From an uncultured Clostridium sp. (GTDB lineage: Bacteria; Bacillota; Clostridia; TANB77; CAG-508), in assembly GCA_947073285.1 (NCBI GenBank), contig CAMTJT010000007.1:32053-64052 (forward strand): a stretch of DNA of 32,000 bases. Direction: 5' to 3'. A program made the translations under genes and the position numbers. This document shows positions 18,607 to 28,159 of this stretch, one piece after another. The notes under the pieces were generated by a model. That model did not search any database and was not told the DNA's origin. It saw nothing but the letters and a program-made list of their open reading frames with translations. How positions within the stretch are numbered: the first letter of the stretch is position 1; the number at the start of each line of letters is the position of its first letter.

Positions 18607-19989
18607 TTAGGGGTACAGGGTTACAAATATAAAGCTAGGCGAAGGCCGAAGACCGTCGTTGGAACCGTCTGGACCGCCGCTGTCACGACCCGATGCTGGA
18701 CTGTTGGTACCAGTGTAGCTAAAGTTGCCGCCTCTATAAACTCGATTGTACGTGTAGTAAGCTTCCATTGTCCATTCATAAACATTTCCTGCTAAATCAT
18801 AAATATGTTTTTGTTGGTAAGCTTGGCTACTTCCTGTAACTGCTATACTTCCTGTATAATTCCCCTTATCTGTACTATCTGCCACAAAACTAGTTAAATT
18901 TCCTTCTGCCTTTTCATAATTTGAATCTATAAAATTTAACGCTGCATCCCATTGTACTCCATAACACAAGGTACTTGTTACTTTATGAATTGTATCACTT
19001 TCTGGGTATAAACTTCTTGCCACTACCACTGCTCCTGGTTTTGTATCATCTCCTGGTAACTTATCAGATGATGAAGTATCTGAAGATGTACCTCCCCATG
19101 GAATAGTATTCCATACACCTACTCCTTTTTGCACTAATGGCTTTACACTTCCATCTGCTTTTGTTTTAGTTGAAAGGTTATCATTATCTGTTGTTCCTAC
19201 TATTCCTGCCTCAAATCGACCTATATAAAATCCTTTATTTTCTTTTACACTTTTATACATCTCAATACTTTCTATACTTCCTGCTGTACTATTTTTTGCA
19301 AGCGGAGTTCCTGCTTCTAAACTTGCTCCTGCCTCTCTTGATGGATTTGTTGCTTGACTAAGCATTGTACCTAAATTACCATTATAATATCCTTCTATCA
19401 AATGAAACTTACTATAATCTTCTACTGGTATCCACACAAATTGATTTCCATGTTTACTATTATCTAAATCATCATCTTGTACATCTGATATGACTAACCC
19501 ACTTTCTACTGTATTTTTATCTTCTGGGTTTTCTATGCTATCTTTTACTACACAAAATCCTCCTGGAATAATTGCTTTTCCTGTTTCATCTTCATATGGC
19601 TTGTTTTCTCCTGTTACTAACTTTCCTTTATCATCTGGCGTTAATTTATCAGCTCCTGGTGTTGTTCCTCCTGAGCCATCATTTCCATTTAAGTAATTTT
19701 GTAGCTGATTTGTAATATCTCCTAAATCTTTTTGTTCTTTTTGCATCGCATTATTGGTTGCATCTGCTGCTCTTTGTGCCATGTTAATAATTCCATTTTC
19801 TCCTAGTACAAATGTGATGGTTATTCCTGCTAGTATCAAAAGTACCACAATGGTTACCACCAAAGCAATTAAAGTGATACCCTGCTCTTTACTTATTTGT
19901 TTTAAGCATGTATTTATGTTTGCTTTTACCTGTGTTTTGCTATTTTGCAAGTAGCTATTGTTTTCTTCCTTTTTTATTCTTGTTTTCAC
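18607..19989 (-). CDS. Prepilin-like N-terminal anchor fused to an FGE-sulfatase/C-type-lectin-fold domain, with a candidate DGR variable region at the C-terminus
   Basis: The likely start is GTG 19989 with AAAGGAGGAAT upstream, parallel to the paralog. The track's ATG 20040 has no SD. Sequence landmarks are QGITLIALVVTIVVLLILAG, YIGRFEAG, VQWDAALNFI, GNVYEWT and RVYRGGNF. The zero-frame stop is at 18607. If the in-frame CGG at 18646-18648 is bypassed +1, the gene ends ...DGL-G-LRLALYL* at 18621. Confidence 0.75.
   Translation of the reverse strand: MKTRIKKEENNSYLQNSKTQVKANINTCLKQISKEQGITLIALVVTIVVLLILAGITITFVLGENGIINMAQRAADATNNAMQKEQKDLGDITNQLQNYLNGNDGSGGTTPGADKLTPDDKGKLVTGENKPYEDETGKAIIPGGFCVVKDSIENPEDKNTVESGLVISDVQDDDLDNSKHGNQFVWIPVEDYSKFHLIEGYYNGNLGTMLSQATNPSREAGASLEAGTPLAKNSTAGSIESIEMYKSVKENKGFYIGRFEAGIVGTTDNDNLSTKTKADGSVKPLVQKGVGVWNTIPWGGTSSDTSSSDKLPGDDTKPGAVVVARSLYPESDTIHKVTSTLCYGVQWDAALNFIDSNYEKAEGNLTSFVADSTDKGNYTGSIAVTGSSQAYQQKHIYDLAGNVYEWTMEAYYTYNRVYRGGNFSYTGTNSPASGRDSGGPDGSNDGLRPSPSFIFVTLYP
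18646..18648 (-). other. In-frame CGG inside the FGE-gene variable tail (predicted +1 site)
   Basis: The sense strand reads GGT CTT CGG CCT TCG. The +1 reading GGT CTT [C] GGC CTT CGC CTA GCT TTA TAT TTG TAA gives GLGLRLALYL*, which resembles the G(F/L)RLA end of FGE-fold domains. Confidence 0.5.
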
Positions 19990-20324
19990 GTTTTTTATTC
20001 CTCCTTTGCTATTTTTACTTATACTTTTTACATATTTCATTCTATTAAAAATTGTATTTTAGGTTTAAATTTCTTCATTTTAATATTAGCAATTTTTATA
20101 CTATTTTCCTATGTTGCTCTATGTTTTTAGCATAAGTTTTTTCTTTTAGTATTATGAGCTATTTTTTTGCTTTTTATACATAACTTTTAGCTACATTTCT
20201 ACTTACTTTTCACAAAACTATTTAATTTTAAATGTACTCTATTTAAGTTATGCATTTTTAAGCTTTTTGCTCATTTTGATAATCAATACACTTACTCTTG
20301 TTTCGTAAATATATTTTCACTTAT

Positions 20325-20353
20325 AGTATAAAGTAACTTTTTTCAAAAGTCAA
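20325..20353 (-). promoter_or_regulatory. Sigma-A-type promoter for the 18607..19989 gene
   Basis: On the minus strand: TTGACT (20348-20353), a 17 nt spacer, then TATACT (20325-20330). It is homologous to 1424-1452. Confidence 0.5.
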
Positions 20354-23063: not shown

Positions 23064-25527
23064 TTATTCTTCTACATTTGCTGTTTCTTCTGGGTTAATA
23101 GTTTCAATACTAACTACTCTACCTTCGTTTGTTCTCATTAATGTAACACCTTGTGTTGGTCTTCCTAATACACTAATATCTTTTACTCTTAATCTAATAA
23201 TAGTTCCATTTTCTGTAATTAGCATTACATCTTCATTATCTGTTGCAATACGAATACCAACTAGTTTTCCTGTTTTAGGGGTAATTTTGTATGTTGTTAC
23301 TCCTTTTCCACCTCTAGTTTGCACTCTATATTCTTCTAATTCTGTTCTTTTTCCAAAACCATTTTCTGTAATAGCAAGTAAAGTTGCATTTGTATTTCCT
23401 TCTATAATAGATTCCATTCCAATAACAAAATCATCTTCATTTAGGCGAATGCCTATAACACCTTGTGCTGTTCTTCCCATTGGTCTTACATCTTTTTCGC
23501 TAAAAGTAATACAAGCACCTTCTCTTGTTACTAATACTACATTATCTTGTCCATCTGTTAAACGTACATCAATTAATTCATCATCATCTCTTAAAGTAAT
23601 TCCTAATAGACCAGTTTTTCTAATAGAATCATATTCGTTTAATGGTGTTTTTTTGATAAAACCTCTTTTAGTTCCCATTAATAAATATTTTCCATCTGCA
23701 AAATTAGAAATTGGAATAACTGCTGATATTTTTTCTCCTGCATCTAGTCTTAATAAGTTAACAATTGCTGTACCTTTTGCTGTTCTTCCCGCTTCTGGTA
23801 CTTCGTAGCCTCTTAAGCGATAAACCTTACCTTTATTACTAAAGAATAAAAGTGTATCATGAGTAGATGCTGTAAATATTTGTTTTACAAAATCATCTTC
23901 TCTTGTTGCTAATCCTGTAATGCCCTTTCCACCGCGGTTTTGGCTTTTATAAGTATCAATTGGCATTCTTTTTACATAACCAAAATGTGTTAAAGTAATT
24001 ACAGTTTGTTCTTCTTTTACTAAATCTTCTATATTGATTTCGCCTTCTGCAGCAACAATTTTAGTTTTTCTTTCGTCTCCATATTTTTGTTTGATTTCTA
24101 ATAGTTCTTCTTTGATAATATCATATACTAGTTTTTCACTGGCTAAAACTGCTCTTAAATGCTCAATTAATTTCATTAATTCGTTATATTCTTCATCTAT
24201 TTTTTCTCTTTGTAAACCTGATAATGTTTTTAATCTCATGTCTAAAATAGATTGAGCTTGTATTTCAGAAAGTTTAAATCTTTCCATTAATCTTTCTTTG
24301 GCATCATCATAAGAATTACGAATAATTTCAATTACTTCATCAATATTGTCTAATGCTATTTTTAATCCTTCTAAAATATGAGCCCTAGCTAATGCTTTAT
24401 CTAAATCAAATTGTGTTCTACGAAGTACTACGGTTTTTCTATGATCTATATAATAGTCTAAACATTGTCTTAAGGTTAAAATTTTAGGTTCTCCATTTAC
24501 TAATGCTAATATAATAATTCCAAAAGTATCTTGAAGTTGTGTGTGTTTATATAGTTGATTTAAAATAACTTGTGCATTCACATCTCTTTTTAATTCAATT
24601 ACTATTCTTATTCTAGACTCTCTATCTGATTCGTCTCTTATTTCTGAAATACCTTCTATTTTCTTTTCTCTAGCTAGTGCCGCCATATTTTCAATTAGTT
24701 TTGCTTTATTTACTTGATATGGTAGTGAATTTACAATAATTCTTTGTTTATTTCCTGCCATTTCTTCTATTTCAGATTCTGCCCTTACTGTAATTTTTCC
24801 TCTACCTGTTGTATAGGCTTGTCTAATTCCTTCTAGACCTAATATAACACCCTCTGTTGGGAAATCTGGTCCTTTTACCACTTCCATTAATTGTTCATCT
24901 GTTACATCATCTTCATCAATAATTTTAATAATTCCGATTAATTATTTCTGTTAAATTATGTGGTGGAATATTAGTTGCCATACCTACTGCTATACCTGAA
25001 GAACCATTAATTAATAATGCTGGTATTTTAGCTGGAAGAACGGTTGGTTCTTGCAGACGATCATCATAGTTTGGCATAAAATCTACTGTATTTTTTTCAA
25101 TGTCAGAAAGCATAGTTTCTGCAATTTTTGCCATTCTTGCTTCTGTATACCTCATAGCAGCTGGACTATCGCCATCAACAGAACCAAAATTCCCATGCCC
25201 ATCAATTAGGGTATATCTTTGCGTAAAATCTTGTGCTAATCTTACCATAGCATCATATACTGAAGAATCACCATGTGGATGATATCTACCTAAAACTGAA
25301 CCAACTGTATTAGCACATTTTCTGTATGGCTTATCTGATGTAATACCATCTTCATACATAGCATATAGAATTCTTCTATGTACTGGTTTTAAACCATCTC
25401 TTACATCAGGAAGTGCTCTAGCTACAATAACACTCATGGCATAATCAATATAGGCTGTTCTCATTTCTTTTTCTATGTCACGCTCTATGATTTTTCCGTC
25501 ATTTCTTTTTTGCTCATTTGCTTCCAT
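23064..25527 (-). CDS. gyrA: DNA gyrase subunit A, read across a +1 frame change at CGG 24934-24936
   Basis: Family motifs are present: [27 protein letters not shown], and the active-site region AAMRYTE. Track ORFs 24925..25527 and 23064..24887 join as ...[37 protein letters not shown] when the C is skipped. Confidence 0.9.
24934..24936 (-). other. In-frame CGG at a +1 frame junction (gyrA)
   Basis: The sense strand reads AAT CGG AAT TAT TAA. AAT [C] GGA ATT ATT AAA restores the conserved EVI(D/N)G position. Confidence 0.8.
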
Positions 25528-25888: not shown

Positions 25889-26668
25889 TTAATTTACTAA
25901 TAGTCCTGCTAATGCTAATTGTTCTTTACTAATATTAAAATCATGCCCATTATTTTTAATAAGTGTATGTATGTTTTCAATTGCTCTTGCTTCATTTATT
26001 GTTTTTTCTAATGGCATAACTTCTTTTAATTTCTCCTTTATTTTTTGATATTCTCTTTCCATTCCTTCAAAATTTTCTTCTTGATAATATTTTTTCCAAT
26101 TATTTTCATATTTTCCTAGCTTCTCAATTTGATCTAATTGACCTACAAATTCAGCTTCAATATTACTACTTACATTATCTAATATTACATTTTTTCCTTG
26201 CCTAATTAGTTTTACAATATTATTAGGTAATAATCCACTTTTTTGTGTAACTGCTAATGTCGAATCTATTACATTAGAAACACCTTCTATAATACCTCCA
26301 TTTTTTACAACATTTTGTGCTTGTGCAATACTATCAAATTTTCCTGTAAAAATCCCTGTTACACTTCTTCCTAATTCTACTGCATTTGCTACTGCTTTAT
26401 CTATGCCTTCTTTTAAACCACCTCTTATTAAACTATTTTTTACATCTATAATTTGGTTTTCTACAAAGTCTGGTAATATCCATCTTAGACCTAAGTCAAT
26501 AGCGGTATTAATCACTTTTCCTACTGCTGTATCTAAAAAGTGATTTTGTTGTTTTGAGGTTACTAATTCATTTTGGGTTACCTCATATTTATTTAACTCT
26601 TGTACTGCCTCATTTTGATTTATAGTTTGTTTTTCTTTGTTTTGTTCTATTTCTTCTTGTAATAACAT
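25889..26668 (-). CDS. Hypothetical protein, 259 aa
   Basis: Long ORF, last gene of the minus-strand accessory cluster. I recognise no family. Confidence 0.55.
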   Translation of the reverse strand: MLLQEEIEQNKEKQTINQNEAVQELNKYEVTQNELVTSKQQNHFLDTAVGKVINTAIDLGLRWILPDFVENQIIDVKNSLIRGGLKEGIDKAVANAVELGRSVTGIFTGKFDSIAQAQNVVKNGGIIEGVSNVIDSTLAVTQKSGLLPNNIVKLIRQGKNVILDNVSSNIEAEFVGQLDQIEKLGKYENNWKKYYQEENFEGMEREYQKIKEKLKEVMPLEKTINEARAIENIHTLIKNNGHDFNISKEQLALAGLLVN

Positions 26669-26785
26669 TTCATTTCTTTCCTTTCTTTTCTATATGATTT
26701 TTTTCTGCAAAAATACAACTTATACTTCTATTTAATTATTAAAATTTAAGTGTTTTTATTAAACTCTAAAATTTTGTATAAAAGT

Positions 26786-28066
26786 TTAATTTAGCATTTT
26801 AAAACTTTTATAACTTTTTATAATATTTTGTTTTATTTTTTCATATTCTTTTTGTATTTTTTTACTAATATTGATGGATATATTTCGATTTATCATTAAA
26901 TTATATTTTGAATTAAGTGATAGTTTTCCTATAATTGAAAAACCTGAAAAAATATTTTTTAAAATTGAACTATCTATAGAATTTGAATTGTATTTATTAA
27001 ATAATATATGAAATCCTTTTTGTGGAATTTTCCATTCATTAATATAAATATTTAGTAATTTCTTCGCTTTTTTTATTTCTAATAAATTTGCTTCTACTAT
27101 AAAAATATGAAAATTACATTGTTTCATAATTTCTTTTGTATAATCAAAAAAACATTCTGAAGTAGTATCTATAATAATGGTATCATAACTTTCTTTTAAT
27201 TTAGTTAAAATACTTTTTATTTTCATACTACTAATTTGATATTTAGCATCAAATAATAAATTAATTCCTGCTATTAAATCAATTTTATGATTTATTTTTA
27301 TAATTAACTCTTCTACATTGATTTCTTGTAGCAAATCATTTTTTCTAATTTTATTTTTTATTTTATCTGGATATTTTTTTATCCCCAGAATTGTATGTAA
27401 GCTATTATAAAATACATCAAAATCAATAATTAATATTTTATTATTTTTATTTTCTAAAACTTTTGCTAGATTAACTGTTACAACACTTTTACCTACGCCA
27501 TTTGTTCCACTAATACAAATAATCTGTTTTGGTTGGTTATTATCAATATTTTTATTATCTTTACTATTTTTTTCTTTTTTACATTTTTTTATTTTATTTT
27601 TTTTGGGGTTAATTTGAATAAAACTATTTTCTTGCTCTTTTTGTTCTTTTTCTAATAGTAATTTTTTTAATTCGTCTAATTCTTTTTTTATTTCTTGATT
27701 AGGATTTTTCTGCCCATTTTTAATAATTTCTACTAGATCTTCTAACTCTACTTCGTTATGATAAAATATATTGTAAATTCCTTTCGCATATAAATAATTC
27801 TCTAATTCTTGATTTTTCTTTTCTAGAAATAAAATAATTTGAAGATTATAATTAGTTTGTTTTATTTTATTAATAAACTCTTTGATTTCAAATTCTCCTG
27901 GTAATAATTCACTTAATATTAAAAAATCGATTTGATTTTGTTTTTCTAAAAATTCTAAAATTCCTTCTTGATATTGAATGTCTTCTGATAAAATTTCAAA
28001 TAATGGATTTCTTTTTAAATATCTATTTAAAATTGGATTTCCTATTGCTGTTATAATTTTTTTCAT
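26786..28066 (-). CDS. ParA/MinD-superfamily ATPase with an N-terminal receiver-like domain (TadZ/CpaE-like)
   Basis: The N-terminal ~120 aa have a CheY-like alternating pattern. A Lys-rich linker follows, then a deviant Walker A ICISGTNGVGKS and ILIIDFD. Confidence 0.6.
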   Translation of the reverse strand: MKKIITAIGNPILNRYLKRNPLFEILSEDIQYQEGILEFLEKQNQIDFLILSELLPGEFEIKEFINKIKQTNYNLQIILFLEKKNQELENYLYAKGIYNIFYHNEVELEDLVEIIKNGQKNPNQEIKKELDELKKLLLEKEQKEQENSFIQINPKKNKIKKCKKEKNSKDNKNIDNNQPKQIICISGTNGVGKSVVTVNLAKVLENKNNKILIIDFDVFYNSLHTILGIKKYPDKIKNKIRKNDLLQEINVEELIIKINHKIDLIAGINLLFDAKYQISSMKIKSILTKLKESYDTIIIDTTSECFFDYTKEIMKQCNFHIFIVEANLLEIKKAKKLLNIYINEWKIPQKGFHILFNKYNSNSIDSSILKNIFSGFSIIGKLSLNSKYNLMINRNISINISKKIQKEYEKIKQNIIKSYKSFKMLN

Positions 28067-28159
28067 TTTTATTTATTTTTTACTCTTTCTCCTTTTATAT
28101 ATATTTAGGTTTTTAATAATAGATTTCCTATAAACTATTGATACCAATTTTTTAATTTA

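Follow-up and report, generated by a model that had tools for sequence, protein, structure and literature searches.

The locus described here lies in a stretch of 32,000 nucleotides (the window) of contig CAMTJT010000007.1, from an uncultured Clostridium sp., and centres on a minus-strand gene with a GC-rich 3' end, the target gene. Its closest described relatives are diversity-generating retroelements (DGRs), in which a reverse transcriptase (RT) and a template repeat (TR) diversify the variable region (VR) of a target gene. The element of Bordetella phage BPP-1, with Mtd, bRT, Avd, a TR and the initiation of mutagenic homing (IMH) sequence, acts on a phage tail fibre in cis, and its TR-to-VR changes are adenine-specific and fall mostly in AAC-type codons. 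TvpA of Treponema denticola is a lipoprotein encoded beside its own RT. Classic multi-target DGRs have one TR and near-identical VRs. In remote and multi-target DGRs of Legionella, cyanobacteria and the candidate phyla radiation (CPR), the target lies far from RT and TR, and there are several paralogous targets per genome (PMC6642488, PMC8144416). Gut DGRs also act on the adhesive tips of Bacteroides pili (bioRxiv 10.1101/2024.11.15.621889), and targets of the 'GspG-type pilin' kind are rare and 'scarcely represented' (PMC11661182).

In our assessment, with a probability of about 0.9, window positions 18633-18764 (minus strand) are the DGR variable region of a chromosomal gene that encodes a prepilin-like surface protein, and lie at the 3' end of that gene (Table 1). 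The assignment is a new example of a well-known system, and the mechanism itself is known. A 132-nt TR located elsewhere would be transcribed and then reverse-transcribed by a DGR RT together with Avd, nucleotides would be misincorporated opposite template adenines, and the cDNA would replace the variable region (mutagenic retrohoming). About 23 residues of the ligand-binding face would be randomised in this way, while the scaffold codons would stay fixed. The preliminary description of this DNA had already proposed the tail as a candidate VR, and the proposal is now supported by an adenine-specific TR, by localised hypervariability and by a related cassette that combines Avd, RT and TR.

The target resembles TvpA in being a cellular, surface-exposed variable protein with the FGE subtype of the C-type-lectin fold and a VR at its extreme C-terminus. 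It differs from TvpA in its prepilin-like N-terminus and helical stalk and in having no RT within approximately 52 kb, and the two proteins are only about 12% identical. With BPP-1 the locus shares the adenine specificity of the TR-to-VR changes, mostly in AAC-type codons, a GC-rich invariant VR 3' end that precedes the divergence of VR and TR, and downstream hairpins; the related cassette has Avd and the RT motifs IGxxxSQ and YMDD. In contrast to BPP-1, the target here is chromosomal, close to oriC and probably served in trans, its TR uses AAT as much as AAC, the host belongs to the Clostridia-type gut organisms and has about 27% GC, and one has to go 94 nt past the homology, rather than a few nt, to reach the nearest strong hairpin.

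Table 1. Features of the target locus, of the paralogous locus and of the two related contigs L009 and L010 (coordinates refer to the window unless a contig is named; / marks the putative processing site of the signal)
Feature	Position	Strand	Remarks
Target gene, longest open reading frame (ORF)	18607-20040	minus	ATG at 20040, 477 aa
Target gene from GTG start	18607-19989	minus	460 aa
Promoter-like TTGACT-17-TATACT and A-rich leader of about 270 nt	20041-20353	minus	conserved with the paralog upstream region 1183-1490
Prepilin-like segment QGITLIALVVTIVVLLILAGITITF	19804-19881	minus	class III signal-like, G/ITLIA, followed by a long amphipathic helix
VR, block homologous to TR	18633-18764	minus	gapless 132-nt alignment to L009 1474-1605
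Variable span	18651-18758	minus	108 nt, all 42 variable columns of four alleles, 23 NNC/NNT hypervariable codons
Invariant GC-rich VR 3' end TTCGGCCTTCGCCTAGCT	18633-18650	minus	18 nt identical in TR, IMH-like, includes the extra T that shifts the frame
Frameshifted C-terminal tail LRPSPSFIFVTLYP, then stop	18607-18650	minus	last 14 codons, in place of GFRLALYL and stop of the family
Weak hairpin CCCCT(18 nt)AGGGG	18586-18613	minus	5 bp, overlaps the stop codon
GC-stem hairpin TCATGGCG, 8-nt loop, CGCCATGA	18516-18539	minus	94 nt past the end of VR/TR homology
Truncated paralog of the target	1-1182	minus	GC-rich variable tail from about 69 to the window edge
Template repeat (TR) AAGCTTACAACACGAACAATCGAGTTAATAGAGGTGGCAACTATAACAACACTGGTACCAACAATCCAGCATCGAATCGTAACAACAACAATCCAGACAATTCCAACAACAATATTCGGCCTTCGCCTAGCT	L009 1474-1605		132 nt, outside any target gene
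MutS domain I ORF	L010 647-1111		154 aa, 32 bits against a cutoff of 20.6, between target gene and avd

The tail stands out by composition. Sliding 100-nt windows have a mean GC content of 26.6% (standard deviation 6.9), and the window as a whole has 26.7%. The count of 57 G+C for positions 18641-18740 was exactly reproduced on recounting. Values of at least 50% per 100 nt occur at two places only, namely for starts at 18592-18676, with a maximum of 61%, and for starts at 1-10 (window 1-110), where the equivalent tail of the truncated paralog begins. GC content is 54.5% in the VR and 33.6% in the remainder of the target gene. The 81-nt sense string that had been quoted for the tail maps in frame to 18732-18652 of the minus strand, and 14 of its 27 codons indeed end in C, versus 32 of 450 in the remaining gene (Fisher p = 7e-9). 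An AAC/AAT-rich template would give a run of NNC/NNT codons, and hence both the GC enrichment and the C-ending codons. Two points of the preliminary description need amendment. It had named mutagenesis of AAC to NNC as the signature, and while the C-ending codons are real, NNT codons (from AAT) are diversified as well. The GC-rich tail is also real, but the homologous block has the limits given in Table 1, and variable sites extend about 25 nt further upstream than the quoted string.

A sharp jump from 27% to 54% GC over 130 nt could also indicate a foreign island, acquired by horizontal transfer, or a faulty assembly, the more so as several genes of the window are split by frameshifts. However, the same gene end, including its +1 frame, was recovered in independent SPAdes and MEGAHIT assemblies, the split genes are split in independent assemblies too, and the region keeps the reading frame and can be aligned to the C-terminal ends of thousands of homologs. 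We therefore find an island or artefact scarcely credible.

Variation is confined to the tail. At the DNA level, the window was compared with three contigs of the ENA (L001-L003), which come from differing samples and assemblers (SPAdes, MEGAHIT), so that four alleles were available. Codon positions 1 and 2 hold 41 of the 42 variable columns, and on either side of the variable span the alleles do not differ at all (100% identity over 95 nt upstream and over 96 nt downstream). Neutral divergence would give the opposite pattern. At the protein level, the closest database relatives (95%, 90% and 89% identical) diverge from the target chiefly in the approximately 40 C-terminal residues. With cluster members added, there are at least nine distinct VR alleles among 14 close orthologs, and the target ORF is intact in every strain compared. 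The residues at the variable sites fit NNC/NNT codons: K, E, Q, M and W are absent from the closest orthologs (ten protein alleles), as NNY codons cannot specify them, and the sole exception is one K in the 72%-identical homolog P0004. Recombination among old alleles is excluded as the source of this variation, because old alleles would differ at third positions. The same hypervariability signature is seen in a group of 444-aa orthologs of the paralog type (P0189-P0250) from another abundant species, which comprises five discrete alleles, one of them present in most of the 31 aligned sequences and in more than 20 samples. In this group, a W-to-C change just upstream of the variable part accompanies one allele.

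In principle, such variation might arise without a retroelement. Diversifying selection could act on point mutations, or silent cassettes or paralogs could donate sequence through gene conversion, as happens when pilin antigens vary, and the GC content would then be incidental. The protein is pilin-like, paralogs with similar tails occur in the same genome, and the alleles are discrete and common to several strains. Yet neither process confines change to codon positions 1 and 2 between fully identical flanks, neither the window nor the related loci contain a cassette-like copy of the VR, and the tail of the paralog differs in sequence and is unfit as a donor. Moreover, this explanation predicts no non-coding copy with A at every variable site, and the adenine-specific template described below contradicts it. 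We judge a mechanism of this kind very unlikely.

In support of the DGR assignment, a template was found. Its sequence was deduced by placing A at each variable column of the four alleles. DNA scans with this all-A sequence gave no matches in GTDB genomes and JGI metagenomes; one base of the pattern was wrong, since window position 18669 corresponds to G in the TR. The deduced template was also translated in its two open frames and searched against a collection of 5.8 billion proteins, because automatic gene prediction often places small ORFs on template repeats. This search returned ten small ORFs. One of them, P0252 (113 aa), fits the second frame at 93%, and seven others, which read ...NRVNRGGNYNN.GSNNPASNRNNNNP.N.N.NIGFR..., belong to templates of sister elements. 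P0252 is encoded on L009, a 1,694-bp ENA contig from another gut metagenome (sample ERZ14864794). The homology between the TR on this contig and the VR opens abruptly at AAGCTTAC and closes at CGCCTAGCT, beyond which L009 is unrelated to the target gene.

The TR has A at 52 of its 132 positions and differs from the VR of the window at 22, of which 21 are TR adenines (binomial p = 4e-8); the single non-adenine mismatch is a synonymous T/C difference. Over the four alleles, 80 of 86 mismatches are at TR adenines (p = 1e-25), and the TR carries A at 39 of the 42 variable columns. Its codons are AAC or AAT at 20 sites, and three more (TAC, TAT and ATT) contain one mutable adenine. The repeat of roughly 100-130 bp that had been anticipated, with adenines wherever the two copies differ, thus exists, although in another assembly, and the alleles of different samples vary almost exclusively at the adenine-templated sites of the VR, again as expected. 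The window itself contains no template repeat, as had been stated: an A-degenerate pattern with up to three mismatches matched the VR alone.

A second contig, L010 (3,322 bp, encoding P0254), carries a full DGR arrangement beside the same protein family. In order, it contains the 3' end of a target gene with its VR (ending in EWTMESCNTHSRVIRGGDYSFTGAYSPASTRGYIYPSNGYVYVGFRLTLYL and a stop), a MutS_I-like ORF, bAvd, RT and TR. The Avd protein matches PF22296 (bAvd) with 57 bits (cutoff 40) and the NCBIfam model DivGenRetAVD with E = 7e-17, below the cutoff of that model. The RT is encoded in two overlapping ORFs, with RVT_1 matched in two pieces (45 bits) and with the motifs IGNYTSQ and YMDD; a frameshift interrupts it where the sequence is lysine-rich and A-rich, and this split could be an assembly error. 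Between TR and VR of this cassette, 21 of 25 mismatches are at adenines. MutS-like accessory genes are listed for some DGRs. L009 and L010 also have sequence in common on both sides of the template, immediately upstream and, on the downstream side, over about 40 nt (TATATTTTAAGGAATATAT), which indicates that the elements are homologous.

A number of observations weigh against the DGR assignment or at least complicate it. As the preliminary description had noted, there is no RT in the 32-kb window, and Avd is also absent from it; judged by synteny in related strains, neither RT nor Avd nor TR occurs in the adjoining 10 kb or so on the left side (L006) and on the right side (L012-L015). N-tolerant patterns that fit both VR and TR had no matches in IMG/VR, JGI metagenomes or GTDB representatives. 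The TR comes from a different metagenome assembly, on a 1.7-kb contig of 2.4x coverage without an RT, and upstream of it there are an HTH_3 gene and a LytTR response regulator (L009 214-1282) in DNA of 37-43% GC. Over the four alleles, 6 of 86 TR mismatches are not at adenines, and TR adenines that precede G were unchanged (0 of 28 cells; four alleles, window 18636-18764). Finally, the same VR allele can occur on backbones that are about 4% divergent elsewhere (P0121 has the allele of the window, P0126 that of P0001, and P0128 that of P0002), and such sharing between strains suggests that diversification events are rare.

The lack of RT and template from window and flanks makes the tail a remote target, as had been proposed, with RT and TR outside the window and its 10-kb flanks, that is, none within about 52 kb. 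The homolog loci give the same picture, with no RT and no TR within 10 kb in L004, L005 (a metagenome-assembled genome (MAG) at NCBI), L006, the IMG/VR loci L007 and L008, and the right-flank loci L012-L015. We infer that the genome from which the window comes also carries TR and RT, and that these act in trans. The empty N-tolerant scans indicate that the source species is absent from the GTDB representatives, the JGI metagenomes and IMG/VR. On L009, the TR flanks (1283-1694) have 21-25% GC, and the GC step towards the regulator genes marks either the boundary of a mobile element or a chimeric low-coverage contig. It is unlikely that L009 is a chimera with a degraded gene copy in place of a template, because A is found at all 39 adenine-templated variable sites.

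The allele sharing raises the question whether the VR is a fossil, written by a DGR at an earlier time, whose working RT or template has since been lost from the genome, so that homologous recombination now moves the alleles. The backbones of the target orthologs are mosaic, and identical alleles on divergent, mosaic backbones, together with an allele that dominates more than 20 samples in another species, would fit this history. So would the distance to any RT, the lack of an RT on L009, the split RT of L010 and the low model confidence at the frameshifted C-terminus. However, an intact all-adenine template exists in present-day gut metagenomes and matches the VR at all non-adenine positions but one, and the split in L010 could, as mentioned, have arisen in assembly. 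The number of alleles among the 14 close orthologs and the intact ORF in all strains also speak against loss, as do the third positions, which have barely drifted (1 of 42 variable columns), so that the alleles are young relative to neutral divergence. Loss of the retroelement is possible, but we consider it the somewhat unlikely course of events. Within the DGR assignment, diversification looks episodic, or the alleles may have been spread by recombination, and diversification may be continuing.

The sparing of adenines before G shows that adenine mutagenesis is not uniform. The spared NAG adenines include five at third positions, four of the five being fully synonymous. Codons with such a spared third-position adenine include CGA, AGA, CCA and CCA. 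For comparison, TR adenines in AA context were changed in 73 of 152 cells (48%), and in L010 one of four NAG adenines was changed. The BPP-1 enzyme (bRT) has a strong 3'-neighbour dependence, with an average in-cell rate of 30.65% (PMC12875486), and such dependence is also described elsewhere (bioRxiv 10.64898/2026.06.12.731847). The published context dependence of bRT explains the NAG sparing only in part: its direction is unsurprising, whereas its completeness is surprising.

Directly after the shared 3' end, VR and TR diverge, the former continuing with TTTATATTTGTAA and the latter with CTAATAGTATTC. L010 has the same VR-type and TR-type 3' ends (ACTTTATATTTGTAA and ACTCTAATACAATTT), and in the L009 and L010 lineages the VR goes on ...CT-TTATATTTGTAA and the TR ...CT-CTAATA.... 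By analogy, the two types of ends are reminiscent of IMH and IMH*. In the lineage of the window, the TR (L009 1585-1605) and all VR alleles have an extra T (ATTCGG instead of the ATCGG of sister elements), which shifts the last 14 codons out of the frame of the family. The ancestral frame is open, as an alternative ORF (18621-18785, minus strand) that ends in FGLRLALYL and a stop. An indel of the template thus seems to have passed into the target and to have been retained there.

Downstream, homologs have stronger hairpins at the place of the weak hairpin that overlaps the stop codon, namely CCCCTTAAG...CTTAAGGGG in L005 and TCTCC...GGAGA in L008. The GC-stem hairpin of the preliminary description is present and dominates the centroid fold. 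It is conserved in L001-L003, and identity with these contigs stops just after it; L010, L005 and L008 have a second hairpin at a comparable distance. A consensus terminator scan did not call the hairpin at 18516-18539 a canonical terminator, but it is probably the terminator-like element of the gene. Purine-rich tracts of 0.7-2.4 kb, nearly free of C and without ORFs, are found downstream of family members in other genomes (L004 11245-13708 and L001 1700-2360).

The target protein consists of a prepilin-like N-terminus, a helical stalk, a G/T-rich linker and a globular domain of FGE/C-type-lectin fold, with the VR at the C-terminus (aa 426-469 of the 477-aa ORF). The AlphaFold model (105 homologs) has a mean pLDDT of 81, with values above 90 across most of aa 131-460 and low confidence at residues 461-477. 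It is composed of a transmembrane helix, a long stalk helix, a flexible G/T-rich linker and the globular domain, and has helices at 55-79 and 84-117. A Foldseek search of the PDB with this model returned the T. denticola DGR variable protein TvpA (2y3c) at the top (E = 1.3e-4), followed further down by FGE, PorK, TaqVP and Mtd. The Pfam match to FGE-sulfatase is weak (aa 376-432, E = 3e-4, 20.9 bits compared to a gathering threshold of 23.3) and covers only positions 142-198 of the 255 in the profile. A likewise weak profile match to SUMF2 (1y4j) involves only the last part of the protein. The placement of the tail at the end of an FGE/C-type-lectin fold, as previously suggested, is therefore backed by the SUMF2 profile and the fold search in addition to the weak Pfam match. 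According to the model, the globular domain is of the FGE subtype of the C-type-lectin fold and is not an enzyme. A catalytic FGE/SUMF1 identity was rejected because the profile match is partial and its score is under the gathering threshold, so that the fold alone is in common.

The prepilin-like segment is kept across the target family (consensus GITLIALVVTIVVLLILAG, with conserved G/ITLIALVVTIVVLLILAG), which has many thousands of members in MAGs of gut-type Clostridia. In the target the leader has 37 aa, and position +5 is Ala, not Glu. In lacking Glu5, the protein presumably resembles the GspK-class minor pilins. Pfam N_methyl was matched weakly, below the cutoff, and only in the segment of the paralog, and the NCBIfam pilin models did not match the target protein. 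Some homologs are named 'type II secretion system protein' by NCBI, and at one homolog locus a gene with a prepilin-peptidase domain is approximately 8 kb away; in the window, no pilus machinery is adjacent to the target. We infer that the target is a pilus-tip-type adhesin. For modular pilins of the PilB/PilC type, no hypervariation mechanism is known to us. The target shares with these type IV pilins of Streptococcus sanguinis an N-terminal pilin helix and a grafted binding module (PMC8179133), but not Glu5, and it differs from them in its 37-aa leader and in the lack of adjacent pilus machinery in the window. Its likely role is that of the Bacteroides pilus-tip targets of gut DGRs, which are however part of the Type V pili of Bacteroidota, whereas the protein described here is a modular protein of the type IV-pilin-like kind, with a class III signal, from AT-rich Clostridia.

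A second member of the family, truncated by the window edge, is 92% identical to the target gene in its N-terminal 201 nt. Between its tail and that of an ortholog (L006 10001-11254), all differences are at codon positions 1 and 2, except for one 3-nt indel. A single TR serving both paralogs of the window was considered and rejected, since their VR sequences are unrelated and would need separate templates, which sets the locus apart from multi-target DGRs despite the likeness in having several paralogous targets far from RT and TR. The L004 and L005 paralogs differ at third positions too, which indicates that they are not homogenised by a common TR. For the VR of the window paralog, the translated template peptide is expected to resemble TETNNNADNPCNNRGGNYN....

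The database protein P0124 (460 aa) is 100% identical to the target and begins at the GTG at 19989. This codon is probably the true start of the target gene, because a strong ribosome binding site, AAGGAGG, precedes it and P0124 starts there. Exact look-ups of the 477-aa ORF and of P0124 both returned no record, in the case of the ORF probably owing to its different called start. The leaders of both paralogs (20041-20353 and 1183-1490, minus strand) hold perfectly conserved blocks, for example GTAGCTAAAAAGTTATGTATAAAAA and GCTCATAATAC. From its sequence, the shared leader of about 270 nt may be regulatory. No Rfam family was matched anywhere in the window, the leader included.

To the left of the window there are UDP-sugar and ABC-transporter genes, and to its right, in related strains, rnpA-rpmH, dnaA, dnaN, recF and gyrB. 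The dnaA-dnaN-recF neighbourhood places the target gene near the replication origin. Between gyrB and gyrA, adjoining dnaA-dnaN-recF, a block on the minus strand (25889-31337, L012 10001-15436) encodes DUF4160, DUF2442, TraC-like, VirB4/TraG-like and ParA/CpaE-like proteins and a 259-aa protein of no assigned family. By its gene content, this block is a predicted module of conjugation or pilus type that has been inserted next to the origin. The intergenic DNA upstream of the ParA-like gene contains a T-rich tandem repeat (window 28163-28262) with a period of 14 nt and at least five copies.

Several genes in this region are split. The gyrA gene (23064-25527, minus strand) is frame-split into ORFs of 200 and 607 aa, in the same way in L012, L013 and L015. 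Further examples are murA (3238-4534), a metallo-beta-lactamase (MBL)-fold gene (4715-5513), a VirB4-like gene (28528-30115) and yidC (in L012 and L014). Either these essential genes are truly split or frameshifted, or the splits reflect something systematic in this lineage. An alternative genetic code was rejected as an explanation, since the frame changes and there are no in-frame stops to reassign.

The data may also hint at a distributed DGR network in AT-rich gut Clostridia, with many scattered pilin-like lectin paralogs, each having a template of its own that acts in trans, at least one template locus beside a LytTR regulator and physically uncoupled from the RT, an RT that spares NAG, and a template-borne +1 indel that rewrote the C-terminus of the target. 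This wider picture is speculative, and we regard it as improbable in its entirety. If it were true, NAG sparing would let templates in an AT-rich genome carry 'safe' adenines.

The findings also bear on how such systems are recognised. Raw sequence alone can suffice to spot a remote DGR target, by the GC-rich run of NNC/NNT codons that ends an FGE-fold gene when the genome is otherwise AT-rich. Nor is the genome needed to recover the missing template: a translation of the inferred template can be used to query protein collections for spurious ORFs over TRs. For the family, the assignment adds a very large group of prepilin-like lectins, with thousands of members in uncultured gut Clostridia, to the surface proteins that are diversified by DGRs. 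It suggests that Gram-positive commensals of the gut have hypervariable adhesins at their pilus tips, in parallel to the Type V pilus adhesins of Bacteroides.

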